Positions 7,754-37,162 of a DNA stretch of 64,000 nucleotides are shown here, in pieces. The stretch lies in NCBI GenBank assembly GCA_003345545.1, contig PRDH01000039.1, positions 89,881-153,880 on the forward strand, in the 5' to 3' direction. Each line of letters begins with the position of its first letter. Position 1 is the stretch's first letter. The notes below the pieces were generated by a model, which was not told where the DNA came from, made no database searches, and was given only the letters and a program-made list of their open reading frames with translations. Position numbers and translations under genes: made by a program. The DNA comes from Candidatus Thorarchaeota archaeon. GTDB taxonomy: Archaea; Asgardarchaeota; Thorarchaeia; Thorarchaeales; Thorarchaeaceae.

Positions 7754-7989
7754 TGGACGATTGGCCGACACCATGTTGCTCCATGCGTCGTCGGTAGTCG
7801 TGGGAACGACGCAGATACACTTAGTGGTCTATGCGAATGTCCCGTCGCGGGAGATTCGCCTCTCACCGAAAAGGTTCAGGGAGATACCCGAATAGTGTGT
7901 TCAGCGAGCACCACTCATGATCAAAGAGAAAAGAGGGTGGACCTCGAGCCCCAAAAATGGGCACCAAAAAGGGCGTTGGCCTTCGTCCA
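7754..7989 (+). ncRNA. Candidate novel structured non-coding RNA (~236 nt)
   Basis: Ends pair (TGGACGA/TCGTCCA and GGCCGAC/GTTGGCC); at least six internal helices; G-U pairs favour the + strand; TTTATG about 24 nt upstream; no ORF. Confidence 0.6.
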
Positions 7990-8002: not shown

Positions 8003-9172
8003 CTAATTCTCCTCAAGTTGCTCTGACAGGAGCTCCATGATATCTAGGACTCTCACTCTACTGCTGATACTCTCTGCGCCTTCTTTCAGATTACGCACGC
8101 AGAATGGGCAAGCTGTTGCTAGAATATCCGCCCTGACCCCCTCTGCAGTCTTCACTCTGTCAGCAGCAATCCTTCTGGCAAGGGACACATCAAATGAACG
8201 CAGACCTCCTCCAGCCCCACAGCACATTGCTGCTTCCCTATTGGGGGTCATCTCAACAAGCTCTACACTGGGGATTGCCTTTATGATTTCTCTGGGCTCT
8301 TCGTAGACTCCTAGCGCTCTCCCCAGATGGCAGGGGTCATGCCATGTGACTCTCCTTTGCCTGTCACCACCCCTCAGTATCAGTTTTCCACCTTTGATAG
8401 CAGACTCGAGGAATTCAACCACGTGCACCACTTTCGGCATATCTAGACCAAAGTACTCTGAATAATCCTCGCGGAGTGTCTTTAGGCATCCCGCACATGC
8501 AACGATGACTGTTTTTGCACCGGACTCTTTGATACTCTGCATCACTCTCTCCGCATTCTCTCTTGCACTGTCAATGCGTCCTGTCCTTATCATGACACTT
8601 CCGCAACATGGCTCATCTTCCAGAACTGCAAAATCGTACCCAGCAGCTCTCAAGACTCGGGCTGCCGATTTTGCTGTTTCAGTCAATTTGAGACCTGCTG
8701 TACAGCCTGCAAAATACAGTACGTCACCTGTGCTCGGAATGTCAAATCCTATCTCAGCCACCCAATCTCTACGTGTCTTATTCGTCTCGGTGTACGGATT
8801 ATTGTATCTCAGAATCTTATCCGCTATCGCATCACGTGACTCGTTCGGTATCTCATTGAGCACATCCCGCACGCTTTCCAAACACTTCGCAGGATCGAAC
8901 TCAGCGGCGCAAATGGCAGTGCAATTGCCACAGAGTGTACATGTGTAGAGCGCTTCTGCATTCTCCGCGGTCTTCATAAGTCTTCCTTCGAGCAGAGCAA
9001 TGGCTACCTGAATTCTGCCCCGCATGAAGCTAGTTTCAAAACCAGAGGAGTTCTTCCAGACGGGACATACTCCATCAAAACCTCTGTCTTCATAGACTGC
9101 ATTTCGACACATGCCGCATCTGCGACATTGTGCCAAGTTCTCCATCAATTCATCAATGCGAGCACCAGTCAT
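8003..9172 (-). CDS. Fe-S oxidoreductase, GlcF/HdrD-like (2x 4Fe-4S + 2 CCG domains)
   Basis: CRRCGMC, CTLCGNC...C, PCCG, HDPCHLGR, MCCGAGGG and ACPFC. Confidence 0.9.
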   Translation of the reverse strand: MTGARIDELMENLAQCRRCGMCRNAVYEDRGFDGVCPVWKNSSGFETSFMRGRIQVAIALLEGRLMKTAENAEALYTCTLCGNCTAICAAEFDPAKCLESVRDVLNEIPNESRDAIADKILRYNNPYTETNKTRRDWVAEIGFDIPSTGDVLYFAGCTAGLKLTETAKSAARVLRAAGYDFAVLEDEPCCGSVMIRTGRIDSARENAERVMQSIKESGAKTVIVACAGCLKTLREDYSEYFGLDMPKVVHVVEFLESAIKGGKLILRGGDRQRRVTWHDPCHLGRALGVYEEPREIIKAIPSVELVEMTPNREAAMCCGAGGGLRSFDVSLARRIAADRVKTAEGVRADILATACPFCVRNLKEGAESISSRVRVLDIMELLSEQLEEN

Positions 9173-9230: not shown

Positions 9231-10658
9231 TCATTGCTCTTCACTTACATGTTCAATCCCTGGAATGACGCCAGGATTCATGATATTGTTGGGATCGACT
9301 GCTTCTTTTATGTCGCGAAGGAACTCCAAGTAGGTTTGCATCTCTGTTATCCCATCCACCCAATATGGTGCAAGTTTGAATGGAACCGCACCTGTCTTGA
9401 AGAGGCGTTTTGAGAGCTCCTTGTGAGCTGCACGTGCTTTGATTTCTTCATCTTTATCTTGCGGGTCATAGAATATCTGAGGATAGTAGTTGTATGATCC
9501 ATGCCCAGACTGAAATCCGGCAGTGTGACCAGCAATGCCGTACTCGTCAAAGAGAGGCCACATCTCTTCTATAGTACGATGCCACTGCGACTGAGGTTGG
9601 TGATGGTACAGGATTCGCCAGTGCCAACCGTGGACATAGGATGACCTTGCAAGCTCTCGCATGCGATCATTCCATTCCCCCCGCGGGAGTTCACGAATGC
9701 CAATGACCTGTCCCCCGACTCTTTCGCAGGCCTCTCTGGCAGCTATGACGTCGTTCTCCAACTGATTCTCTCTTACTCTTCCTATCACCATAGATATGGT
9801 GACGGGTGGCCATTCGTGCTTTGGGACTCCATACTCCTCTCCTACCATTTCCAGAAAGAAATCCAGAATTCTACCCTCATATATCGCAATCCAGACCGTG
9901 CTCAAGTCATCCTGTTTCACCTCAAACACGAATCTCTCAGCGTCTTGGGCGCTTTGAAAGCCATATGTGTTGTAATCGAAGTAGTGCATTCTCTTGAAGG
10001 TCTTCAGAGATACTTTCGTGATGATTCCAAAAGCTCCTAGTGAACCGATGAACAGTCCTGTCAGATCAGGGCCGAAGGCATAACGGAGGAATGGCCCTGG
10101 AGCATTGGGGTTGGCCTCAGAACCCGTTTGTATGATTTCGCCATTAGGCAGGACCACCTCAAGACCCAGAACAAGCTCAGCAATGCATCCGAATCTGCTT
10201 GAACCAAAACCTGCTCCGTTGACTGCCACATTTCCAGCAATTGTAGCACTCAAGGAGGAACCGGGATAGATAGGTAGCCATAGGTCATACTTATTGAGGA
10301 ACTTGTCTAGCCTTCCAAAGTTGATGCCAGCGCCAACTTTCACAGAACGCAAGTCTTCATAAATGTGGATATCGTCTAGCCTCAAAAGGTCAACAACGAG
10401 TCCCCCCTTCTTGGGAATGACCTCTCCCTGCAAGCTGGATCCTCCTGCGCGAGGGGTCACAGGTATCCTGTGCTTATTTGCGATCTTGATGACCTGCGAC
10501 ACTTGATGTGCATCTGCTGGTCTCACTACCGCTGCTGGCAGAACTGGTTCGTAGCTGGTAGAGGCCGATACTGAGTAAGTCAGTAGTACATCCTTCTTCG
10601 TGCTGACGAATTCCTCACCTACGATGGCGACAAGCTTCTGCACAACTTCTTTTTTCAA
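9231..10658 (-). CDS. FAD-binding oxidoreductase, GlcD/LDH-like
   Basis: PRAGGSSLQG, ATIAGNV, GSLGAFGIIT and DPNNIMNPG. Confidence 0.9.
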   Translation of the reverse strand: MKKEVVQKLVAIVGEEFVSTKKDVLLTYSVSASTSYEPVLPAAVVRPADAHQVSQVIKIANKHRIPVTPRAGGSSLQGEVIPKKGGLVVDLLRLDDIHIYEDLRSVKVGAGINFGRLDKFLNKYDLWLPIYPGSSLSATIAGNVAVNGAGFGSSRFGCIAELVLGLEVVLPNGEIIQTGSEANPNAPGPFLRYAFGPDLTGLFIGSLGAFGIITKVSLKTFKRMHYFDYNTYGFQSAQDAERFVFEVKQDDLSTVWIAIYEGRILDFFLEMVGEEYGVPKHEWPPVTISMVIGRVRENQLENDVIAAREACERVGGQVIGIRELPRGEWNDRMRELARSSYVHGWHWRILYHHQPQSQWHRTIEEMWPLFDEYGIAGHTAGFQSGHGSYNYYPQIFYDPQDKDEEIKARAAHKELSKRLFKTGAVPFKLAPYWVDGITEMQTYLEFLRDIKEAVDPNNIMNPGVIPGIEHVSEEQ

Positions 10659-10684: not shown

Positions 10685-11020
10685 TCAGAAGATATGTCTA
10701 ATCTTCATGAGATCTGATGCCGAACCCTTGACCTTGAGCTTTCGCTTCAGGAGCGCTGATGCTGCGCTTGTTTCTTCTAAGAAGAGCTTCCGAATGGTAT
10801 CTTCATCGCTTTCAATCTTCATATCCGGATTATCGATACTTCCCGAGTTCACGACGATATTGTTGTCTTTAACCAGGAAGTTATACTCTTTGCCTTCCTT
10901 GAGCGTCAAGAGTGCTGTTCGTTCCCATCCATTGATGGCCTCCTTCGTCTTCTCTCGTTGGAGACCGTCTGCGACTTTTACTCGCATTAGTTCAAGCAAA
11001 TCATCTGTCATACGGATCAC
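10685..11020 (-). CDS. SCP2 sterol/lipid-binding domain protein
   Basis: PDMKIESD...SAASALLKRKLKVKGSASDLMK SCP2 signature. Confidence 0.8.
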   Translation of the reverse strand: MIRMTDDLLELMRVKVADGLQREKTKEAINGWERTALLTLKEGKEYNFLVKDNNIVVNSGSIDNPDMKIESDEDTIRKLFLEETSAASALLKRKLKVKGSASDLMKIRHIF

Positions 11021-11109: not shown

Positions 11110-11760
11110 CTATTTCCGATGAGCTTTCACAATGTCCAGGAACTTCTGTACGTTTTCGGTTATTACTTCGTATCTGCTTTCTTTAATCGCCTTCCTGTCA
11201 GTGATTGCACTGCCCACCCCGAGCGCAAAAGCTCCTGCATCAATCATTGGGCCAGCTGTATCGAGCTCTACCCCTCCAGTTGGAACGAGAGGGATCTGGG
11301 GCAACGGTCCTCTGATGGCCTTCAGGTACTCTGCACCGCCGACATTCCCGCACGGAAAGACCTTCACAGCATCTGCTCCCATTGTATATGCTTCGTAAAT
11401 CTCAGTTGGCGTCAGTGCGCCTGGGATGACTGGCTTCGAACGCCCGATCACTGTCTCGATGAGATCCCGCGAGTAGTTTGGGCTCACGATGAAGTCACTT
11501 CCTGCCTTTATGGCCTCAATAGCCATTTTGCCATTGACCACGGTACCCGTGCCAATCAGGACTTTGTTCCCAAATTGCTCAACGAGTTGCTTTACAACAT
11601 CAATTGCTCCAGGAACACTCATGGTAACCTCAACGATATTTATGCCGCCAGCAAGAAATGCATCAGCAACTTTGAACGCGACTTCTGCAGACTCTACACG
11701 AATGATTGGAATCAATCCCGTGTCATGAATATGCTTCAACGCTTTTTTCTTGTCCCACAA
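11110..11760 (-). CDS. eda: KDPG/KHG aldolase
   Basis: IPIIR, VEVTM, GTGTV, FIVSP, PGALTPTEI, VKVFP and PTGGV. Likely TTG start at 11760 after a GAGGTGA RBS; the track's start at 11841 overlaps kdgK. Confidence 0.92.
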   Translation of the reverse strand: MWDKKKALKHIHDTGLIPIIRVESAEVAFKVADAFLAGGINIVEVTMSVPGAIDVVKQLVEQFGNKVLIGTGTVVNGKMAIEAIKAGSDFIVSPNYSRDLIETVIGRSKPVIPGALTPTEIYEAYTMGADAVKVFPCGNVGGAEYLKAIRGPLPQIPLVPTGGVELDTAGPMIDAGAFALGVGSAITDRKAIKESRYEVITENVQKFLDIVKAHRK

Positions 11761-11767
11761 TCTGCTT

Positions 11768-12763
11768 TCACCTCTGGATTCGGAGTCCTCTCTCGCCACC
11801 CTTAAGTAACTTCTCCACCTCATCCTTGTAGACAAAGGCAAGGTCTCCTGGGACTGAGTGCTTCAGTGCTGAGAATGCTGATCCGAAGTCCACTGCCTTC
11901 TGAAGGTCCTTCAACATAAGATGACCGTAGATGAATCCTGCACTGCAAGAGTCTCCGGCTCCCAATCTGTCTACTATCTCTACATCGTAGACAGGACTCT
12001 TGAAGATCTTGCCGTCTGAATATGCAAACACAGACCACCTGTTTAGCCACACCGACGGCGTTTCCCGCAGAGTAATGACTACGACCTCGAACCCGAATTT
12101 GTCCTGAAGCTTTCTTGCTACGTCTTCGTAGTCCTTGCCTTCAATTCCATAGACTACCTTCGTGTCTTCTTCTGTCGTAATCAGGATGTCGATGTTTTCA
12201 GAAACTGGTTCCGTGAATGCCTGTGCCTCTTTTGGAGTCCATAGTTTTCCTCGGTAGTTCACATCATACGAGACTTTACAGCCCTGCTTCTTGGCAGCCT
12301 TCAGTGCCTCAACTGTTGCTTCGGCGCAGCTTCTGCTCAATGCAGGTGTTATCCCACTTGTATGAAAGAGCTTTGTTCCCTTTAGGATGCTTGCCCAGTC
12401 TACCTCTCCAGGTTTGATCTTGCTGATCGCAGACTCCTTTCTGTCATAGATGACTCTATTCGCTCTCGGTGCAGCGCCGAACTCCACGTAATATACGCCA
12501 CAGCGACTTTCGGGATCCCAAACTATGTGTGAGGTGTCGACTCCGTGTTCTTGAGCCTTATTACGGATAAAGTGACCAATCGAGTTGTCCCCCAGTTTTG
12601 TCACATAAGCTGTCTTGAGACCAAGTCTGGCGCAGGCAACTGCAACATTCATCTCTGCTCCACCTGCATGAGCATCGAAGCTATGAGTCTGTTCAAAGCG
12701 CATGAAATCTGGAGGTGAAAGTCGGAGCATCACCTCGCCAAAAGTGACCACATCATAAGCCAT
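11768..12763 (-). CDS. kdgK: 2-keto-3-deoxygluconate kinase (PfkB family)
   Basis: FGEVMLRLSP, GGAEMNVA, YDR, YDVNYR and VDRLGAGDS; ATG at 12763. Confidence 0.9.
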   Translation of the reverse strand: MAYDVVTFGEVMLRLSPPDFMRFEQTHSFDAHAGGAEMNVAVACARLGLKTAYVTKLGDNSIGHFIRNKAQEHGVDTSHIVWDPESRCGVYYVEFGAAPRANRVIYDRKESAISKIKPGEVDWASILKGTKLFHTSGITPALSRSCAEATVEALKAAKKQGCKVSYDVNYRGKLWTPKEAQAFTEPVSENIDILITTEEDTKVVYGIEGKDYEDVARKLQDKFGFEVVVITLRETPSVWLNRWSVFAYSDGKIFKSPVYDVEIVDRLGAGDSCSAGFIYGHLMLKDLQKAVDFGSAFSALKHSVPGDLAFVYKDEVEKLLKGGERGLRIQR

Positions 12764-12840
12764 CTTTTCCAGCTCCAAGTTGTCAAACGTGGTCAAGATG
12801 ACGAGCCGCGTGTTAAATCTGTTGTTAAGTCTCTGGTCTG

Positions 12841-15192
12841 TCAGACACTGTGACTTGAGAACTCGGTTCTGGCAATGACTTCATCTTGCACAAATGGATC
12901 TAGTTCGATGAAGTAGGCACTATATCCAGCAACTCTCACTATCAGGTCTCGATGCTGCAGCGGATTCACCTTTGCATCCTCAAGCATTTCTCTAGATACG
13001 ACATTGAACTGGACGTGGAATCCGCCCATCCGGAAATATGCATCGACCATTCCTAGGAATTTCTCTCGTCTTGCTGTTGTGTCAAAGAAGTCAGGAGTGA
13101 ACTTCATGTTATAGAGGGTCCCATTGTAACAGAGTGAATGATCAAGACGGGCAACTGATTTCATCGCTGCTGTCGGACCGTGTGTATCACGATTCTGAGT
13201 GGGGGACACCCCATCAGATAGCATGTGGCCAGCCTTTCGTCCGTCAGGAGTCGCTCCAAGTGTTTCTCCCTGGGGTATGTACATTGATACTGAAAAGAGA
13301 GCAGCATGATACGGGCCATTTCTCGTAGTCATCCGGCTTTGAATGGATTCACAGAATGCTCTTCCTGTGTCGCGAGCTAGAAAATCTACTCTCTCGATAT
13401 CATTCCCATACTTATCTGGATCATTTTCTAGTCGCACACGCAGCTCTTCATGATTCTCAAAATTCTCTTCGATCGCACTGAGTATATCTTCCATTGTAAG
13501 TTCTTTGCGCTCGAATACGTATTTTCGAAGTATTTCTAGGGAGTCTGCTACGATTGCGACTCCGACTCCCATGATCCCGCCGCTGTTGTAGATGGTTCCG
13601 CCCTCTTGCATTGTAAGGCCTGATTCAATACAACCCTCAAGCAATGCAGAGATGAATGGCGTGGGTTTATGCTCTGCCAAGACACCCGCGGCTATTCTAT
13701 CCGCTCGGGTCAGCAATTCGATGGCGTAGTCAATCTGTTCTTCGTAAGCTCTCCAGAGTTGCTTGAAGTCCTTGAACTTGCGTGGATCCCCTGTTTCTCT
13801 TCCAGCCAATTCTCCGTTCTTTGGATTTCGTCCATTGTTCAGAGTTATCTCAAGAATCTTGGGAAGGTTGACATACCCAATGTTAGGTCGCGGATCTGTC
13901 TTTCCACCGATTATGGGCTCAACGCAACCCAGTATCGCGTAGTTATATGCTTCTGACCTATCTGTTCCTTTATCAACCATCAGCGGGATGATTATCTCAT
14001 CATTGAATAGCCCGGGCATACCAAGACCCTTTGAGATCACATCGACTACCTTGAGTTTCATGTGTTTTGGTGTCTTCTTATGCCATCTGTAAGAAACGGT
14101 TGGCTGAGTGACTCTAATATTCGCAGTGGCCTCGAGGACCAACTCAGTCAGCTCATTGCTTACGTCATTCCCTTGAGCGTCCTCGCCTCCAACGGTGAGA
14201 TTCTGAAACATGGGATGCCCTGCGAACGCTATACTGTAGTATTCATTCCGCAATTTGATTAGAGATGTGAACTTCACCCATAGCATTTCAAGAAGTTCAA
14301 GAGCATCAGCCCTGTCTATCTTCCCATTCTTGAGGTCTCCTTGCAGATACGGATGCAGATACTGGTCGAATCTACCGGTAGACATGGAGTGTCCGTTCGA
14401 CTCTGTTTGGACAAGAAGGTGAATGAACCAAAACGATTGCAGTGCTTCATGGAAGGATTCAGCAGGCAGTGCTGGGACTTTTGCGCAGATTCTTGAGATT
14501 TCTAGAAGCTCGTTTCTTCTGGCTTTGTCATTCTCCTTAGTGGCCATCACCTTGGCTATACCAGAGAATCTCTCAGCAAATCGAATGACTGCCTCTATCT
14601 GTATTCTTGCGGCTTGGTAGAACTCACGCTTGTTCTCATCGTGCTTATTCTTGTTCTCAAGAGCCCTTACTTCTGAAAGAATATGGTTCAGACCCTTATT
14701 GATCACTAGCGGATAATCAACGATGACATGCCCTATTCCAGTGCCCGGAGCTCCAATAGTGAATAGTCCTGCTTTGGATGCTCTTACCGACTCCTCTGGC
14801 AGGAGTTCTCCCGCAATCTCAGCGGTGCTCTTTCCTTTCCAGAACTCGAATACCTCACGTAGTTTTTCCTTGTCATTCTCATCAATGGAGAATCTCTCAG
14901 TTCTCCTCTTGCTGAACCTATCAAGTTCCTCGTTTATCCAGCCCCAGCTATACTCGGGAAATACTTGGCATGACCTTGGAGTTGGACCCATGTTACCGAC
15001 AATGAGTTCCTCTGGTTCAATCCTGAGAGTCATCTTATCCAGCACGTGAGCGAACGCTCCGGCAAGGCGGATAATTGTGGATTCAGACATGTGGTCCTTG
15101 ATATATTCTGTGAAAAGGACTGCTCTCTCAGAGGATATCGTTGGCTTAGATTCAAGCATCCTCTGTTTAATTCTCAAGGTTCGTGCTGTCAT
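12841..15192 (-). CDS. Glycyl radical enzyme, diol/glycerol-dehydratase-like (PFL2/GRE family)
   Basis: Single-Cys loop GCVEP, Gly loop RVAGYSAYF, ESNGHS...GRFDQY, FAGHPMFQNL and GATPDGR; ATG at 15192. Confidence 0.92.
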   Translation of the reverse strand: MTARTLRIKQRMLESKPTISSERAVLFTEYIKDHMSESTIIRLAGAFAHVLDKMTLRIEPEELIVGNMGPTPRSCQVFPEYSWGWINEELDRFSKRRTERFSIDENDKEKLREVFEFWKGKSTAEIAGELLPEESVRASKAGLFTIGAPGTGIGHVIVDYPLVINKGLNHILSEVRALENKNKHDENKREFYQAARIQIEAVIRFAERFSGIAKVMATKENDKARRNELLEISRICAKVPALPAESFHEALQSFWFIHLLVQTESNGHSMSTGRFDQYLHPYLQGDLKNGKIDRADALELLEMLWVKFTSLIKLRNEYYSIAFAGHPMFQNLTVGGEDAQGNDVSNELTELVLEATANIRVTQPTVSYRWHKKTPKHMKLKVVDVISKGLGMPGLFNDEIIIPLMVDKGTDRSEAYNYAILGCVEPIIGGKTDPRPNIGYVNLPKILEITLNNGRNPKNGELAGRETGDPRKFKDFKQLWRAYEEQIDYAIELLTRADRIAAGVLAEHKPTPFISALLEGCIESGLTMQEGGTIYNSGGIMGVGVAIVADSLEILRKYVFERKELTMEDILSAIEENFENHEELRVRLENDPDKYGNDIERVDFLARDTGRAFCESIQSRMTTRNGPYHAALFSVSMYIPQGETLGATPDGRKAGHMLSDGVSPTQNRDTHGPTAAMKSVARLDHSLCYNGTLYNMKFTPDFFDTTARREKFLGMVDAYFRMGGFHVQFNVVSREMLEDAKVNPLQHRDLIVRVAGYSAYFIELDPFVQDEVIARTEFSSHSV

Positions 15193-15228
15193 CTCAAGTC
15201 CTACTGCTCCATACATTGATTACCTTTC

Positions 15229-16407
15229 TCATACGGCATTCCGGAGCAGAGTCGGAAGGAAAGTATCGAGCCTGCTCAGGGCTTCTTCGATTCTCTCTGT
15301 CGAAACAGCGTAGCACAGTCTGAGGAATCCCTCTCCAAACTTGCCAAATGCAGATCCGTGGACTGTCACAACGCTTGTTTCCTTGAGAAGCTTGAGCACA
15401 AGGTCATAGGACTTCATACCATACGCTGACACATCTGGAAAGGCATAGAATGCGCCGCTGGGTGGATCCAATTCTACTCCTTCAATAGCACTCAATCCTT
15501 TGGTTATGATATCTCGTCGCTTCTTGAATGTCTTGAGCATATCATCCACACAACTCTGGGGTCCGATTACCGCTGCCTCCGCTGCCTTCTGCGAAACAGA
15601 TGTGGGCATCGCGACGATGTGCTCTTGAAGTTTCGTCATTGCAGCAATGACTTCCCTGGGACCAACGCATGCTCCAATGCGCCAACCCGTCATCGCATAG
15701 GTCTTGCTCAGAGAGAAGAGAGAAACAGTACGCTCCTTCATGCCCGGGAGTGAACCAATGAAGAGGGGCTTTTCTGTACCATACCGAAACTTTTCATACG
15801 CTTCATCCGCCAGGACGTAGATGTCGTGGTCTATACAGACCTCAGCAATTCTCTTCATTTCCTTGCTGGGGATTATTCCTCCAGTCGGATTGTTTGGCGA
15901 GTTGATAACAAGCATCTTGGTCTTCTCTGTGATTGCTCGTTCGAGCTCTTCTGCTGTGAAACTAAATCTGCTCTTCTTCTTCAGTTGGATTGACACAGGG
16001 ACACCCTGTGCCAACTTAATGTGTGCATAGTGGCTGACGAAACCAGGGTCTGGATAGATCACCTCGTCTCCCGGATTCACAATCACCATGTTTGCAAGCA
16101 CAAGCGCCCCCATTCCACCTGACGTGCACATGAGTTCGGTAACCGGGTCCGCGTCAATCCCGTTGTCACGCTTGATCTTCTGTGCGAAGGCCTCACGTAC
16201 TTCGATTAGTCCTGCATTGTGTGTGTATTTTGTATATCCCTCATCAATGGCCTTCTTGGCTGCTTCTTTGATGTGTTGAGGTGTGTCAAAGTCCGGAAGT
16301 CCGACAGTCATGTCAAAGACATCAGTTCTTCCAATGACCATATTGTAGATTTTTCGGATTTCGCTTCCGGGAACATATGCATTTCTATCAGCTAACACAG
16401 AAACCAC
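15229..16407 (-). CDS. PLP-dependent class I/II aminotransferase (AspAT-like)
   Basis: GLPDF, INSPNNPTG, DEAY, SLSKTYAMTGWRIG and LRLCYA. Confidence 0.92.
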   Translation of the reverse strand: MVSVLADRNAYVPGSEIRKIYNMVIGRTDVFDMTVGLPDFDTPQHIKEAAKKAIDEGYTKYTHNAGLIEVREAFAQKIKRDNGIDADPVTELMCTSGGMGALVLANMVIVNPGDEVIYPDPGFVSHYAHIKLAQGVPVSIQLKKKSRFSFTAEELERAITEKTKMLVINSPNNPTGGIIPSKEMKRIAEVCIDHDIYVLADEAYEKFRYGTEKPLFIGSLPGMKERTVSLFSLSKTYAMTGWRIGACVGPREVIAAMTKLQEHIVAMPTSVSQKAAEAAVIGPQSCVDDMLKTFKKRRDIITKGLSAIEGVELDPPSGAFYAFPDVSAYGMKSYDLVLKLLKETSVVTVHGSAFGKFGEGFLRLCYAVSTERIEEALSRLDTFLPTLLRNAV

Positions 16408-16552
16408 CTAGTTACGAATATGAGAACAGATTCCTGTTTATATAACCTCTCGAATGTACCATGTCTATTAAAGAGGACTCTAGCTATGTTCAGAGGAGTT
16501 TTAAGACGCGCAGCTGTAGGCGAAATCATGAGTGTATCTGGTGATATAGAAG

Positions 16553-17023
16553 ATGACGCGACCTAGTGCTGATGAAGTCAGAAAAGTCTGCATGGCTACT
16601 CTTGCGGATGCTCATGCTGTGTATGTGGAAGCAATACGCCAGACCATGGGCAGAAAGGGCCTCAATGCCATTGGTGAAGCGAATAGATTGCATGGACTGA
16701 CTCTCGGCAAATCAGCGATACAGTCTGGAGGACTAAGAAAGGGGGATCTGCATTCGATATTCGACTTCTTTAGTGCTGCTCATCCCTATTTCGGATTCGA
16801 GCTCGAAGTGGATTCTTTCACGGATACGAAACTCGATCTCAAGGTCACATCTTGTCCCTGGATAGATGCCTTCAGAGCTCGAGGTGCTGGTGAGGATATC
16901 TGCACATGGGTCACCCAGATTGATGAGGGAATTGGTCAGGCAGTTGACCCCACTGTCAGACTGACGATTCCCAAGTGCATGATGCGGGGCGATCACTACT
17001 GCATCTACAGTTATACAAAGTAA
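16553..17023 (+). CDS. V4R / L-2-amino-thiazoline-4-carboxylate-hydrolase-like protein
   Basis: VTSCPW...DIC...CMMRGDHYC metal-binding pattern. Confidence 0.7.
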   Translation: MTRPSADEVRKVCMATLADAHAVYVEAIRQTMGRKGLNAIGEANRLHGLTLGKSAIQSGGLRKGDLHSIFDFFSAAHPYFGFELEVDSFTDTKLDLKVTSCPWIDAFRARGAGEDICTWVTQIDEGIGQAVDPTVRLTIPKCMMRGDHYCIYSYTK

Positions 17024-17028
17024 TAGAA

Positions 17029-17706
17029 GTGGATGAATTGACGAACAAGAAGAACATCATACTGCAGAGAACCCTTAGACTGTATGTTGCTGCTCTGTCC
17101 GATGCTGCAGATGAAATTGGGTTGAATCAGGTCTGTATGGACCGCGGGATAATTCCTCTTACGGAAAACAAGAGGACGGCTGGTTTTGCTAGAACTGGAA
17201 AGATGGTGAGGTCTCCAGTCAATCGTCCGTACGACGAAGCTCAGTTGGACACATTCATGAGTCTGGTCACACGAGCAGTTGATGGAGACATCATTACTAT
17301 TGATATGTCGGGGAGCACCGATTGTTCAGCCTGGGGACAGGTTCTCAGTCGGATCGGGAAACCCTTGGGAGTCCGTGGTGCCATTATCGATGGAACCTCC
17401 AGGGATATTGATGATATTGATAGAATGAACTTCACCGTCTTTGCGCGAGGTCGTCATCCTGGGACGATGCGTGGGCGAATGGATATGGAGTCTGTGCAGG
17501 AGCCCGTTGTATGCGGAGGCGTCACCGTGCACCCTGGCGACCTAATCTTTGGAGACAGCGATGGCGTTGTGGTGATTCCTACTGACCATATCGAAGACAT
17601 TCTGGTTCATGCTGAGAATGTCGTTTCAACCGACAAATGGTGGGCAGAAAAGCTCGATGAAGGAAGGGACCCACATGAGTTGCATAAAGAAAGACCAATC
17701 CCCTAG
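17029..17706 (+). CDS. RraA/HMG aldolase family protein
   Basis: AALSDA, SAWGQV, IIDGTSRD and VHPGDLIFGDSDGVVVIP; start likely GTG 17029 or TTG 17038. Confidence 0.85.
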   Translation: MDELTNKKNIILQRTLRLYVAALSDAADEIGLNQVCMDRGIIPLTENKRTAGFARTGKMVRSPVNRPYDEAQLDTFMSLVTRAVDGDIITIDMSGSTDCSAWGQVLSRIGKPLGVRGAIIDGTSRDIDDIDRMNFTVFARGRHPGTMRGRMDMESVQEPVVCGGVTVHPGDLIFGDSDGVVVIPTDHIEDILVHAENVVSTDKWWAEKLDEGRDPHELHKERPIP

Positions 17707-34700: not shown

Positions 34701-34728
34701 GGGAAAGAAGAGGAGAGGTATCTCCTCT
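34701..34728 (-). terminator. Hairpin terminator after AOR
   Basis: AGAGGAGA-ggta-TCTCCTCT inverted repeat with a pyrimidine tail on the minus strand. Confidence 0.5.
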
Positions 34729-36652
34729 ATTCCTTGGGAAGCTTCTTCAGCTTTCCGAGATAGTCAGCTACGTCTTTCAAGCCAAGCTTCTCTAGAGTGC
34801 TTCGCTTGGGCCAACTTGTTTCTTTATCCCATTCATGAAGTTCATAGTATCGGTCGAGCATTCCATCAAGTTCTTTTTGCGAGTTCATTGCTCCCTTTAA
34901 AGGTCCTGATGCTGCTCCTTCATTCATGAGACGCCATGGCAGATTGTCGTGGGCTCGTGTCGCACCTCTGGTGACATTGAACGCCTTCTCCAAGGTACAC
35001 ACACGTCGTCCAGTCCGCATCATCTCTTCCTCTGTCAGCTCGATTCCCGTTGCGGCCGCATAGAGTCTTGCCATATTCTCAGGGTTCACGCCGAATGCTG
35101 CCGTGGATGTAAAGACACAGAAACCCAGTGCCTCCGTGATCTCATAGCAGTCTTCGTGCCATCTGACAATCTCTGCCCGATACTCTGTGAAGTGAGGAGA
35201 TGCCCATTTCTTGCTTCCAGTTATCTTCTCGATGACAGCCACCGCTTCTGGACTCGTGCCAAACTCGGCGAAGGTCTCGGTCATCAAGTGATCATTGCCT
35301 CGTGGATTCACAGCAAAGGCAAGGGAGTAGGCTTTTGCAGACCGTGTTTCTACATTAGACTGCTCCAAGCCCTTTGCGTTCATTACTGCCCATTTGTATG
35401 AGTCGTGACCGATTTTCTTGGTTGCAATCTTGAGACCGTCGCCCAGCAAGTCGCCAAGCTTGCCCTTCCTAAGGGCAAGAGCTTCTATGACCTTGAGAAG
35501 CTCTGGCAGCTTGCCCCATCCTAAGTCCAGTCCATTTGTATCTTTCTTGGTGAGAACGCCCCTCAAGTAGCTCTCAATCGCCCACTGAGCAACACCACCT
35601 GCTGTGATAGTATCAAGTCCGAGTCTGTTGCACATCTCATTTGCCAACAGGACACCTTCAGTATTGATAATTCCGGGTCCGTTGCCGAGGGCACCGAAGG
35701 TTTCATACTCTGGACCGCCGCTGGCAATGCCCGCATTTGGTCCCTTATCTATTGTAGAGTAACGATGGCACGCAATTGTACAGCCAAAGCATGCCACTCT
35801 CCGTTTCAGATACCCTTCACTGACGAGTGCCTGCCCAGTAAGCGGATAGACATTCTCTGTATATCCAGTCTGCCAGTTCTTGCCCGGAAAGGCATGAAGT
35901 TCATTCACTCCAGCCACAGACGCTGACGTTCCAAACTGATGAAGACCCTGAGCGCCGCTGTCTGCTCTCAGATTCTCTCGCATTTCCTCCGCAATCTTGG
36001 CGAATTTCGCAGGGTCTTTCACTTGTATTGGATGGGTTCCTTTCACAGAGATCGCTTTGAGCTTCTTCTTGCCCATGACAGCTGCTCCTCCGCCTCGCCC
36101 AGCTGCGTGATATACCGAGCATTGAATAGAAGCTGCGCGAACAAGATTCTCCCCAGCCGGCCCGATGTATAAACCTCTGGAGTCATCTCCATGCCACTTC
36201 TTCAGTAGCTTGTCAGTCTTAATGATGTCCTTGCCCCAGAGTTTCTTTGCATCCAAGACCTCTACGAGGTCATCCTGAATATGAATGTAGACTGGCTCTT
36301 CTGCCACTCCATGGACAACGAGATGGTCATAGCCAGCATACTTTAACTCAGCACCCCAATGGCCTCCAGTATTGCTCTTAAGGTAGAGACCCGTGGTGCA
36401 TCCAACTGTCGTCACTGATGTTCTTCCAGAAGCGGGAGCGGTTGTGCCCGTTACGGCTCCAGGTGCAAAGATGATAATGTTTCTTGGGTCATCCCACGTG
36501 ATTTCAGGGTCCTTGCAATAGTCCCATAGAATCCTCGCATTGATGCCTCTTGAACCAACGTACAACTTGCGCCATTCTTCAGGGAGTTCCTCTACCCAGC
36601 TCTTTCTCTTGCCAATGTCCACGTGCAGTATCTTTCCTTGGTGACCGTACAA
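34727..36652 (-). CDS. aor: Tungsten-dependent aldehyde:ferredoxin oxidoreductase family protein
   Basis: IGPAGENLV, AAGRGG..AVMG.KKLKAI, CFGCTIAC, PEYET, GLDTI and CVF. Confidence 0.93.
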   Translation of the reverse strand: MYGHQGKILHVDIGKRKSWVEELPEEWRKLYVGSRGINARILWDYCKDPEITWDDPRNIIIFAPGAVTGTTAPASGRTSVTTVGCTTGLYLKSNTGGHWGAELKYAGYDHLVVHGVAEEPVYIHIQDDLVEVLDAKKLWGKDIIKTDKLLKKWHGDDSRGLYIGPAGENLVRAASIQCSVYHAAGRGGGAAVMGKKKLKAISVKGTHPIQVKDPAKFAKIAEEMRENLRADSGAQGLHQFGTSASVAGVNELHAFPGKNWQTGYTENVYPLTGQALVSEGYLKRRVACFGCTIACHRYSTIDKGPNAGIASGGPEYETFGALGNGPGIINTEGVLLANEMCNRLGLDTITAGGVAQWAIESYLRGVLTKKDTNGLDLGWGKLPELLKVIEALALRKGKLGDLLGDGLKIATKKIGHDSYKWAVMNAKGLEQSNVETRSAKAYSLAFAVNPRGNDHLMTETFAEFGTSPEAVAVIEKITGSKKWASPHFTEYRAEIVRWHEDCYEITEALGFCVFTSTAAFGVNPENMARLYAAATGIELTEEEMMRTGRRVCTLEKAFNVTRGATRAHDNLPWRLMNEGAASGPLKGAMNSQKELDGMLDRYYELHEWDKETSWPKRSTLEKLGLKDVADYLGKLKKLPKE

Positions 36653-36655
36653 CTT

Positions 36656-37162
36656 TCATGCAACCTCCTTCTTGATGTCTTTGTAGGCAGCCATTCTGGC
36701 TGAACGAAGCTTTTTCTTTTGAGTGAACAACTCGTCTGTCCTCTTGACCCACAGTAGAGCACCGGGAACGCAATGCTTGACGCAGTAGGGATCTCCTTTG
36801 CAGAGATTACATATCAGAGGCACACCAGTTTCAGGATGTGACCTAATGCCATGGTATGGACAGGACTCGACACAGGACCCACATTGTGTACATATCTCCA
36901 TGTCAACTGTAATGATTCCTGTTTTGGTATCTCTGGAGAGCGCACCGTCAGGGCACGCCTTAATACATGGGTGTGCTTCACATTGCTCGCAAAGAAGCTG
37001 AACGCCCAGCGCGATGTCCTCTCTCTTTAGAATCTTGATCCTCCCTCGAGCTGGATCGAAGAGGTCTTCCTTGGTGAGTGAACATGCAAGGCTGCACTGC
37101 TTGCAGCCCGTGCATTTGTCCATATCAACAAGCAGCAATTTTTCCATATCTTTTCCTTCCAA
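36656..37162 (-). CDS. 4x[4Fe-4S] electron-transfer subunit (AorA/HydN-like)
   Basis: CTGCKQCSLAC, CEQC...CIKACP, CTQCGSCVESCP and CNLC...CVKHC. Confidence 0.9.
   Translation of the reverse strand: MEGKDMEKLLLVDMDKCTGCKQCSLACSLTKEDLFDPARGRIKILKREDIALGVQLLCEQCEAHPCIKACPDGALSRDTKTGIITVDMEICTQCGSCVESCPYHGIRSHPETGVPLICNLCKGDPYCVKHCVPGALLWVKRTDELFTQKKKLRSARMAAYKDIKKEVA

Follow-up and report, generated by a model that had tools for sequence, protein, structure and literature searches.

The stretch of DNA considered here (the window, 64,000 nucleotides) comes from Candidatus Thorarchaeota archaeon and corresponds to C39:89881-153880 of a metagenome-assembled genome (MAG) of 2.69 Mb, which is distributed over 82 contigs and is 92.9% complete. 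The closest homologues of its proteins are all labelled as Thorarchaeota or other Asgard archaea. On the minus strand, a class I aminotransferase, a glycyl radical enzyme (GRE), a 2-keto-3-deoxygluconate (KDG) kinase named KdgK and an Eda-type aldolase are encoded one after the other, followed by an SCP2-like protein, a GlcD-like flavoprotein and a CCG-domain Fe-S protein (Table 1). Gene identities were assigned by profile searches against Pfam and NCBIfam. The aminotransferase and GRE genes are 12 nt apart, the GRE gene and the likely start of KdgK about 77 nt, and the KdgK and Eda genes abut. An earlier note, made from the letters of this DNA alone, had described four co-oriented, closely spaced genes with SCP2, GlcD-like, GlcF-like and divergent HMG-aldolase-like neighbours, and all of these can indeed be found, the four genes being on the minus strand.

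The locus is best explained as a catabolic operon of one family of Thorarchaeia (Asgard), and its GRE, to judge from alignments, as a putative new 1,2-eliminase that has the same catalytic core as B12-independent diol dehydratases and a rebuilt specificity pocket. The GRE probably works in the KdgK-Eda pathway. The reaction favoured below, with a probability of about 0.45, is a radical β-elimination making a 2-keto-3-deoxy sugar acid.

Table 1. Features of the operon and of the divergent genes, with the evidence on which each was named
Feature	Coordinates	Strand	Evidence and remarks
Class I (AspAT/ArAT-like) pyridoxal phosphate (PLP) aminotransferase, first gene of the operon	15229..16407	-	Aminotran_1_2 PF00155, E 1e-75
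Glycyl radical enzyme (GRE), 791 aa	12841..15216	-	PFL-like PF02901 and Gly_radical PF01228
Kinase for KDG or 2-keto-3-deoxygalactonate (KDGal), PfkB family (KdgK)	11768..12796	-	PF00294; likely start is the ATG at 12763
Eda-type class I aldolase for 2-keto-3-deoxy-6-phosphogluconate (KDPG) or 2-keto-4-hydroxyglutarate (KHG)	11110..11841	-	PF01081, TIGR01182; true start probably 3' of the first TTG of the open reading frame
SCP2-like small protein	10685..11020	-	PF02036, E 5e-10; after Eda in most loci (synteny)
GlcD/D-lactate-dehydrogenase-like flavin adenine dinucleotide (FAD) flavoprotein, substrate domain divergent	9231..10658	-	PF01565
CCG-domain/4Fe-4S protein (GlcF/HdrD-like), partner of the flavoprotein	8003..9172	-	PF02754 twice and Fer4_8; synteny
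TATA-like box TATATAAA (minus strand)	16437..16444	-	About 30 nt 5' of the aminotransferase start; read from the sequence
Small ATC_hydrolase-family protein, divergent	16553..17023	+	PF14196, E 3e-11; overlaps the next gene
RraA-like/HMG-CHA aldolase-like protein (class II pyruvate aldolase or oxaloacetate decarboxylase family)	16975..17706	+	PF03737, E 4e-32; PDB 3k4i, 3noj; synteny

Catalytic core and substrate pocket of the glycyl radical enzyme

The two GRE profiles match over residues 9-650 (PF02901, E 2e-203) and 667-770 (PF01228, E 2e-32), and the protein scores above the cut-off of the broad subfamily model TIGR01774 (742 bits vs 678). It falls far under the cut-offs of all NCBIfam equivalog models, with 603/1000 bits for HpfG, 584/1100 for HypD, 554/1050 for CutC, 535/1000 for HpsG, 583/1109 for PRK09983 (NF007437, E. 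coli PflD-type), 442/1100 for indoleacetate decarboxylase and 153.6 bits vs 994 for pyruvate formate-lyase (PFL; TIGR01255). HpfG, a 2,3-dihydroxypropane-1-sulfonate dehydratase and the top equivalog match, was rejected as the identity of the enzyme, the match being non-specific: ten unrelated orphan representatives score alike on all the equivalogs.

The key residues are the radical-bearing Gly764 (in RVAGYS), Cys431-Val-Glu433 (in GCVEP), His163 and His279-Ser280. In an alignment to the glycerol dehydratase (GD) 1r8w, the radical Gly, Cys433-x-Glu435, His164 and His281-Ser282 (GD numbering) are all conserved. Among the orthologues, RVAGYS can be found in 36/36 and GCVEP in 37/37, and GIGH and ESNGHS are likewise kept in 36-37 of the 37. 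The Cys-x-Glu motif and the His of GRE eliminases serve in hydrogen abstraction, deprotonation and protonation of the leaving group (PMC13450708). Since the Cys, Glu and His triad is retained, a direct 1,2-elimination would be expected, as in GD. The single-Cys GCVEP loop, which the earlier note had set apart from the CC loop of true PFL, is borne out, and the segments GIGHVIVDY, ESNGHS and FAGHPMFQNL that it had listed are also present. Rather than being a PFL, the enzyme is an eliminase of the single-Cys Cys-x-Glu kind, and its nearest relatives are the B12-independent glycerol and propanediol dehydratases.

Among solved structures, the best relatives of the GRE are the Clostridium butyricum GD (669 bits), the Roseburia propanediol dehydratase (PD; 640 bits) and 9rco (624 bits), which is the GRM3 PD (PMC12756279). 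The structures of benzylsuccinate synthase (BSS) and methylalkylsuccinate synthase (MASS) reach 288-292 bits. An AlphaFold2 model made from a 40-sequence alignment (pLDDT 93.2, pTM 0.93) retrieves 1r8w as the top Foldseek match (TM-score 0.96, root-mean-square deviation 1.3 Å, 40% identity), BSS ranking 46th. By its domains, motifs and fold, the GRE therefore belongs to the PFL-like GRE superfamily and, within it, to the 1,2-eliminase (dehydratase) class.

Regarding the pocket, the alignment with GD reveals the changes D447N, W445R, Y339F, Y640F and S642V, and the aromatic GNYYYNG loop of GD is replaced by GAPGTG (NYYYN to APGT, one residue shorter). In the numbering of the GRE, the rebuilt pocket comprises the GAPGTG loop, F337, R443, N445, F641 and V643, with P or Q at 444. 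Across 37 near-full-length orthologues, R443, F337, F641 and V643 are all present in 37/37 and N445 in 36/37, the sole exception being a pseudogene. The motifs GNY(F/Y)NGVGH, GGYPM(F/Y)QNL, GKTEGWHD and GLYP(V/S)S are near-invariant in metagenomic true GD and PD, and the GRE clade differs invariantly at every one of them; Asp447, Tyr640, Trp445-His446 and the GNY(F/Y)NG loop, by which a GD or PD pocket can be recognized, are all replaced. Roles of the GD pocket residues are reported in part by O'Brien 2004 and LaMattina 2016, and positions 339 and 642 (Tyr/Ser vs Phe/Val) reportedly separate glycerol from propanediol dehydratase (LaMattina 2016). A sulfonate-binding Arg or Gln was not apparent near His163 or F641-V643 on inspection by eye, without alignment to IslA or HpsG.

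The clade of the GRE is well isolated, its identity to any other protein cluster being about 40-46%. In a set of 1.84 billion representatives clustered at 50% identity, a single one (72% identical) belongs to the clade, and the next protein has 42-44%. In a FastTree phylogeny of 171 sequences, it is monophyletic (support 1.0, stem of 0.50 substitutions/site) and is placed with uncharacterised bacterial clades (P0122, P0121), apart from the PD-like representative; its sister is an uncharacterised Synergistaceae-type GRE without the eliminase His. Ten of the nearest representatives likewise fail every equivalog model. In 151 genomes across the phylum, orthologues (≥65% identity) occur only in the GTDB family of the window, the best elsewhere being ≤41%. 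The ratio of nonsynonymous to synonymous substitutions (dN/dS), 0.083 against the locus L013, is similar to that of the neighbouring genes and suggests a functional gene under strong purifying selection. Public names in the clade (P0049 and others) include 'Benzylsuccinate synthase alpha subunit [Thorarchaeota AB_25]' and 'formate C-acetyltransferase', which do not fit the single-Cys Cys-x-Glu and His signature.

In the bacterial sister clade (P0122 type; L081-L083 and L092, on metagenome contigs), two tandem GREs are flanked by two activases, one of the short PflA type and one of the ferredoxin-domain type, and the first of the two GREs has Asn-Cys-Val-Glu and no eliminase His. Their surroundings include genes for a peptide transporter, an aminotransferase, Lrp/AsnC and an M20 peptidase. 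As to substrate, this clade says nothing.

Linkage and co-decay with KdgK and Eda

KdgK and Eda consume 2-keto-3-deoxy sugar acids, which normally come from enolase- or IlvD-type dehydratases. By its sequence, KdgK looks like a genuine KDG kinase: its best PDB match is the KDG kinase of Thermotoga maritima (2afb, 278 bits), its best profile matches are KDG/KDGal kinase models, and it has the PfkB fold and the GAGD motif. Positions G34, Y89, Y103, R105, I134, R167 and D251, which reportedly contact open-chain KDG in the Thermus kinase (Ohshima 2004), are aligned and conserved. The protein stays under the NCBIfam equivalog cut-off (316/440), which does not fix its specificity for KDG or KDGal. 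Eda exceeds its own cut-off (TIGR01182, 180.6 bits vs 156.05), displays the EVT and VKVFP (Schiff-base Lys) motifs and has the T. maritima KDPG aldolase 1wa3 as best natural PDB match. Each of the two genes is present in a single copy in the genome.

The earlier note had remarked that no enolase- or IlvD-type dehydratase is encoded in the window, and this holds for the entire MAG, where the search for IlvD/Edd found none and the sole enolase-superfamily trace is a 39.7-bit MR_MLE_C match in a 442-aa frame. IlvD/Edd was not found either in five other operon-bearing genomes, nor were UxuA, a UxaA/GarD-type (GD_AH) dehydratase or KduI in five operon-bearing genomes (this one included), nor UxaC or a mannonate/altronate oxidoreductase (UxuB-type, Mannitol_dh_C) in ten genomes of the genus. 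Of five operon-bearing genomes, just two have a clear dehydratase of the enolase superfamily. These absences are to be read as 'not found' in MAGs, with a pattern that is consistent across genomes. Routes through uronate isomerase, KduI, a sulfo-Entner-Doudoroff pathway, inositol or hydroxyproline were also considered, and each fails on an absent gene, on the need of KdgK for a C6 hydroxyl or on the GRE motifs.

The order aminotransferase-GRE-KdgK-Eda recurs in about 35/42 related loci, mostly together with the downstream and divergent genes, the gap between aminotransferase and GRE being 12-24 nt across loci. Except in the closest comparisons, synonymous substitutions have reached saturation, and since the order recurs in spite of this, the arrangement is not due to chance. 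The conservation of the kdgK/eda neighbourhood, a check proposed in the earlier note, is thereby established. Neither tight clustering with a characterised enzyme (CutC, HypD or GD) nor an unconserved kdgK/eda linkage was found, so that the idea put forward in that note is not refuted. Among 61 genomes of the family, GRE and KdgK are both present in 38, GRE alone in 1, KdgK alone in 3 and neither in about 18, across many genera; the four genomes with a single one of the genes are all ≤74% complete.

The genus g6 allows the two genes to be followed when they are not adjacent. Its operon is aminotransferase-KdgK-Eda, and the GRE lies elsewhere, beside a 2-oxoacid:ferredoxin oxidoreductase gene and a thermosome gene. 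G172, one of the genomes of this genus with an unlinked GRE, has intact genes for the activase, the GRE and KdgK. In G059 (97% complete), the unlinked GRE (L040 10001-12337) carries three nonsense codons (Q84, E239, R615), and KdgK, on another contig (L161 4046-5706), carries two (R25, K229) along with a change of GAGD to GGDD; the C-terminus of Eda is frameshifted, and the GRE activase was not found in this genome. The aminotransferase and the flanking genes of G059 are intact. Two further g6 genomes are without both GRE and KdgK. The joint decay of the unlinked GRE and KdgK in G059 is evidence of a shared pathway beyond adjacency.

Proposed reaction and competing explanations

In the reaction proposed here, the single, unlinked GRE activase would put a radical on Gly764, from which it would move to Cys431, and Cys431 would then take a hydrogen from the hydroxyl-bearing carbon adjoining the carboxylate (C2 of the sugar acid). 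Glu433 would deprotonate the C2 hydroxyl, and His163 would protonate the leaving group at C3, which may be a hydroxyl or, in an anhydro-aldonate, the ring ether. Return of the hydrogen would give a 2-keto-3-deoxy-hexonate (KDG or KDGal), to be phosphorylated by KdgK at C6 and then cleaved by Eda to pyruvate and glyceraldehyde-3-phosphate. What we infer is which substrate is used, where the hydrogen is abstracted and that the GRE product is what the kinase phosphorylates. In its narrowest form, which is held more tentatively, the proposal would make the GRE the first radical sugar-acid β-eliminase, taking the C2 hydrogen of an aldonate, anhydro-aldonate or amino-aldonate and expelling the C3 substituent so as to yield KDG or KDGal directly.

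Two known types of system can be compared with this proposal. E. coli YbiW and PflD convert 1,5-anhydro-alditol-6-phosphate to 1-deoxyfructose-6-phosphate, on which an aldolase then acts (PMC13450708). They provide a precedent for a GRE that cuts a sugar C-O bond and whose deoxy-keto sugar product is passed on to an aldolase, with the same operon logic of GRE then aldolase; they differ in having only 33-35% identity to the GRE of the operon, in that their substrates are phosphorylated before the GRE step, and in that their aldolase is of the FSA type and not Eda. The canonical KDG-forming dehydratases (UxuA, UxaA/GarD, enolase-superfamily gluconate dehydratase and Edd/IlvD) occupy the same operon slot ahead of KdgK and an aldolase, with folds unrelated to that of the GRE and ionic, metal or Fe-S mechanisms. 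In the Asgard genome G094 (L076 1260-4325), a UxaA/GarD-type dehydratase comes first, then a KdgK homologue (46%) and a DHDPS-family aldolase. Because a UxaA-type dehydratase stands ahead of the KdgK homologue there, the GRE can be said to lie in the 'dehydratase slot'.

Several observations weigh against the direct formation of KDG. The positions that bind the third hydroxyl of glycerol in GD are hydrophobic in the GRE (Y339F, Y640F, S642V) and D447 is Asn, so that the pocket, as aligned, would suit a substrate with a non-polar group beside the reacting diol more than it would a polyol. It is even more hydrophobic than that of PD, the new polar groups being just Arg443 and Asn445, and a substrate with a methylene or an ether beside the reacting carbons (an anhydro-aldonate or an X-CH2-CHOH-CH2OH acid) would fit equally well or better. 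Co-occurrence of GRE and KdgK mostly reflects a block gained or lost as a unit, since the genes are adjacent, and the unlinked co-decay was observed in one genus and one decayed genome. Neither KdgK nor Eda is encoded near the GREs of the bacterial sister clade. KDG could be imported from neighbouring organisms or arise via an unrecognised reductase, and the roles of the aminotransferase, SCP2 and flavoprotein genes are left unexplained by the scheme. The suggestion in the earlier note of a sugar-acid, polyol or amino-sugar lyase thus stands in part: the enzyme is of the eliminase type and belongs to no characterised cluster, but its hydrophobic pocket is unexpected for a polyhydroxy acid. It is because of this pocket that direct KDG formation is put no higher than about 0.45 and that a smaller share of belief is given to a different step in the same pathway.

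Such a step could be the dehydration of a terminal diol X-CH2-CHOH-CH2OH or the opening of an ether further upstream, for example the conversion of 2-keto-3-deoxy-pentonate to 2,5-dioxopentanoate or a reaction of 3,4-dihydroxybutyrate or of a deoxy-sugar-derived diol. The intact diol-dehydratase core with a hydrophobic pocket by the reacting diol speaks for it, and the co-occurrence and co-decay indicate a shared pathway and not which step; in addition, an RraA-like second pyruvate aldolase and a 2-hydroxyacid-dehydrogenase-like pair are conserved next to the operon, and an aldehyde:ferredoxin oxidoreductase is encoded at 34727-36652. It would, however, leave KdgK without a supplier, and the conserved block contains no aldehyde dehydrogenase or reductase, which makes this alternative rather unlikely, though it is the strongest of those considered. 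Less likely again is an ordinary short-chain diol dehydratase (for 1,2-propanediol, glycerol or ethylene glycol) whose adjacency to kdgK-eda would be inherited gene order without a shared pathway. Glycerol and propanediol dehydratases are indeed the best matches in both sequence and structure, and the GRE has the Phe and Val of PD at two positions that presumably distinguish GD. The C. butyricum GD (DhaB1; 1r8w/1r9d) has the same fold and all catalytic residues in common with the GRE, and the PDs of Roseburia inulinivorans (5i2a/5i2g) and GRM3 (9rco) come second with a TM-score of 0.96. Nevertheless, the GRE is archaeal, its pocket changes are fixed in the clade, and it sits in a kdgK-eda operon and not in a dha regulon; GNYFNGVGH, GKTEGWHD and LYPVS of PD are missing, as are nearby genes for an activase, a microcompartment shell or an aldehyde dehydrogenase. 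Its identity of 40-46% to these enzymes compares with 55% between GD and GRM3 PD (PMC5311937). The invariant divergence from the GD/PD motifs, the placement in the tree away from the PD-like representative and the co-decay of unlinked GRE and KdgK in G059 argue in the same direction.

The GRE and the aminotransferase could also act together on an amino acid or 2-oxo acid, through a HypD-like dehydration or an elimination (glucosaminate-type amino-aldonates included), KdgK and Eda then taking a 4-hydroxy-2-oxo acid. The gap of 12-24 nt between the two genes in all loci and the persistence of an aminotransferase-KdgK-Eda operon in g6 are compatible with this, as are a class I aminotransferase (40% identity), an Lrp/AsnC regulator and an M20 peptidase by the sister bacterial GRE at one locus. 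Yet the aminotransferase stays intact when GRE and KdgK decay, four genomes have it on its own, it most resembles aromatic/aspartate aminotransferases of broad range, and no chemically economical route could be drawn from the product of a class I aminotransferase to KDG; this makes joint action doubtful, at about the level of an ordinary dehydratase or slightly below. An alkyl- or benzyl-succinate synthase or a PFL is by far the least probable. These identities are suggested by the database names in the clade and by the assignment of Asgard GREs with a single Cys to the alkyl- or benzyl-succinate synthases (PMC8163825). A PFL needs Cys-Cys where the GRE has GCVEP, and its equivalog score is a small fraction of the cut-off (154 bits vs 994). 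Likewise, the scores to BSS and MASS are less than half of that to GD, the eliminase Cys-x-Glu and His are present, and BSS comes low among the Foldseek matches. Among the annotated neighbours there are no genes for the small Fe-S (β/γ) subunits, in a search that was not exhaustive for small subunits. Radical β-elimination from a sugar acid, feeding KdgK and Eda, is retained as the preferred explanation.

Neighbouring genes, activation and meaning of the operon

The aminotransferase has the SLSK PLP-lysine and NPTG motifs, and its best PDB match is the aromatic/aspartate aminotransferase of Pyrococcus horikoshii (1dju/1gd9, 329 bits). The earlier note had made this PLP enzyme part of the feeding step, a role that is weakened by the finding that it is intact where GRE and KdgK are broken and that an orthologue can be found alone, without GRE and KdgK, in four genomes and in unrelated contexts. 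In genus g6 it has remained in one operon with KdgK and Eda, so that it probably contributes to the pathway, pyruvate handling being one possibility, without being core to it. It probably acts at the edge and not in feeding, for example by interconverting an amino acid with pyruvate or some other 2-oxo acid. A link of the aminotransferase to 2-oxoacid:ferredoxin oxidoreductase through 571-aa neighbours was discarded as a coincidence of length, BLAST showing no similarity. In G009 (L163 1735-2891), the aminotransferase orthologue is in two overlapping frames, by a frameshift or an assembly error, and the GRE is split over two contig ends.

The genome has four GREs and one activase (TIGR02494, 317 bits; C1:13330-14193), which is unlinked to the operon and lies beside another GRE. 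A single activase per genome is found in 52/60 genomes of the family, and activation of the operon GRE in trans by the sole activase is plausible. The notion of a GRE without activase, prompted by the single-contig CP070658.1 with three GREs and no TIGR02494 match, was dropped, since that genome is apparently 77% complete and 52/60 have the activase. The three GRE paralogues (34-36% identical; C81:629-2995, C81:85438-87849 and C1:10913-13312, loci L064-L066) are found in different settings, one directly upstream of the ribosomal L3-L4-L2 genes, one by hydrolase genes and one by the only activase.

Between the aminotransferase gene and the divergent ATC_hydrolase/RraA-like pair lies a 145-bp intergenic region, which holds the TATA-like box, a putative promoter of the operon. 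The neighbours of the ATC_hydrolase-family gene in the protein atlas are of the same family, and its synteny is kept, genus g6 included. PDB matches of the GlcD-like flavoprotein are confined to the FAD domain (residues 3-247). Eight paralogous pairs of GlcD-like flavoprotein and CCG/Fe-S protein are present in the 2.7 Mb genome (8003-10658 and 19508-22083 in the window, six elsewhere), with substrate domains too divergent for a substrate to be named. Downstream, a gap at 7754-7989 separates the CCG gene from an inositol-phosphate synthase gene. At 34727-37162, 18 kb from the operon, a tungsten-type aldehyde:ferredoxin oxidoreductase adjoins a polyferredoxin, and it is a possible sink for the GRE product, should that be an aldehyde. 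In G029, from another Asgard family (L073 3457-11815), an HpcH aldolase, KdgK (59-62% identical), Eda and a desulfoferrodoxin occur together. Upstream of this KdgK set, at a distance of 1.4 kb, genes for two HGD-D subunits and two BcrAD-type activators make up a set resembling 2-hydroxyacyl-CoA dehydratase.

With regards to the literature, no paper linking a GRE to enzymes of KDG metabolism or the Entner-Doudoroff pathway, or describing this operon, was found. According to a 2026 review of GREs, there is no archaeal PFL-like GRE of known function, and whole clades are unvalidated (PMC13450708). A study of Hermodarchaeota (PMC8163825) treated single-Cys GREs of Asgard archaea as alkyl- or benzyl-succinate synthases and based a case for hydrocarbon degradation on them. 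For the Thorarchaeal clade described here, a hydrocarbon-activating function is not supported, and the clade offers a concrete alternative, that of an eliminase tied to a sugar-acid kinase and an aldolase. If KDG is indeed made by this enzyme, the reaction would be new for GREs and would constitute an oxygen-sensitive, dehydratase-independent entry to an Entner-Doudoroff-type route. A function could then be assigned to an archaeal PFL-like GRE for the first time, which would correct the hydrocarbon reading of its clade, and the operon would add a new piece to the carbohydrate catabolism of the archaeal relatives of eukaryotes.

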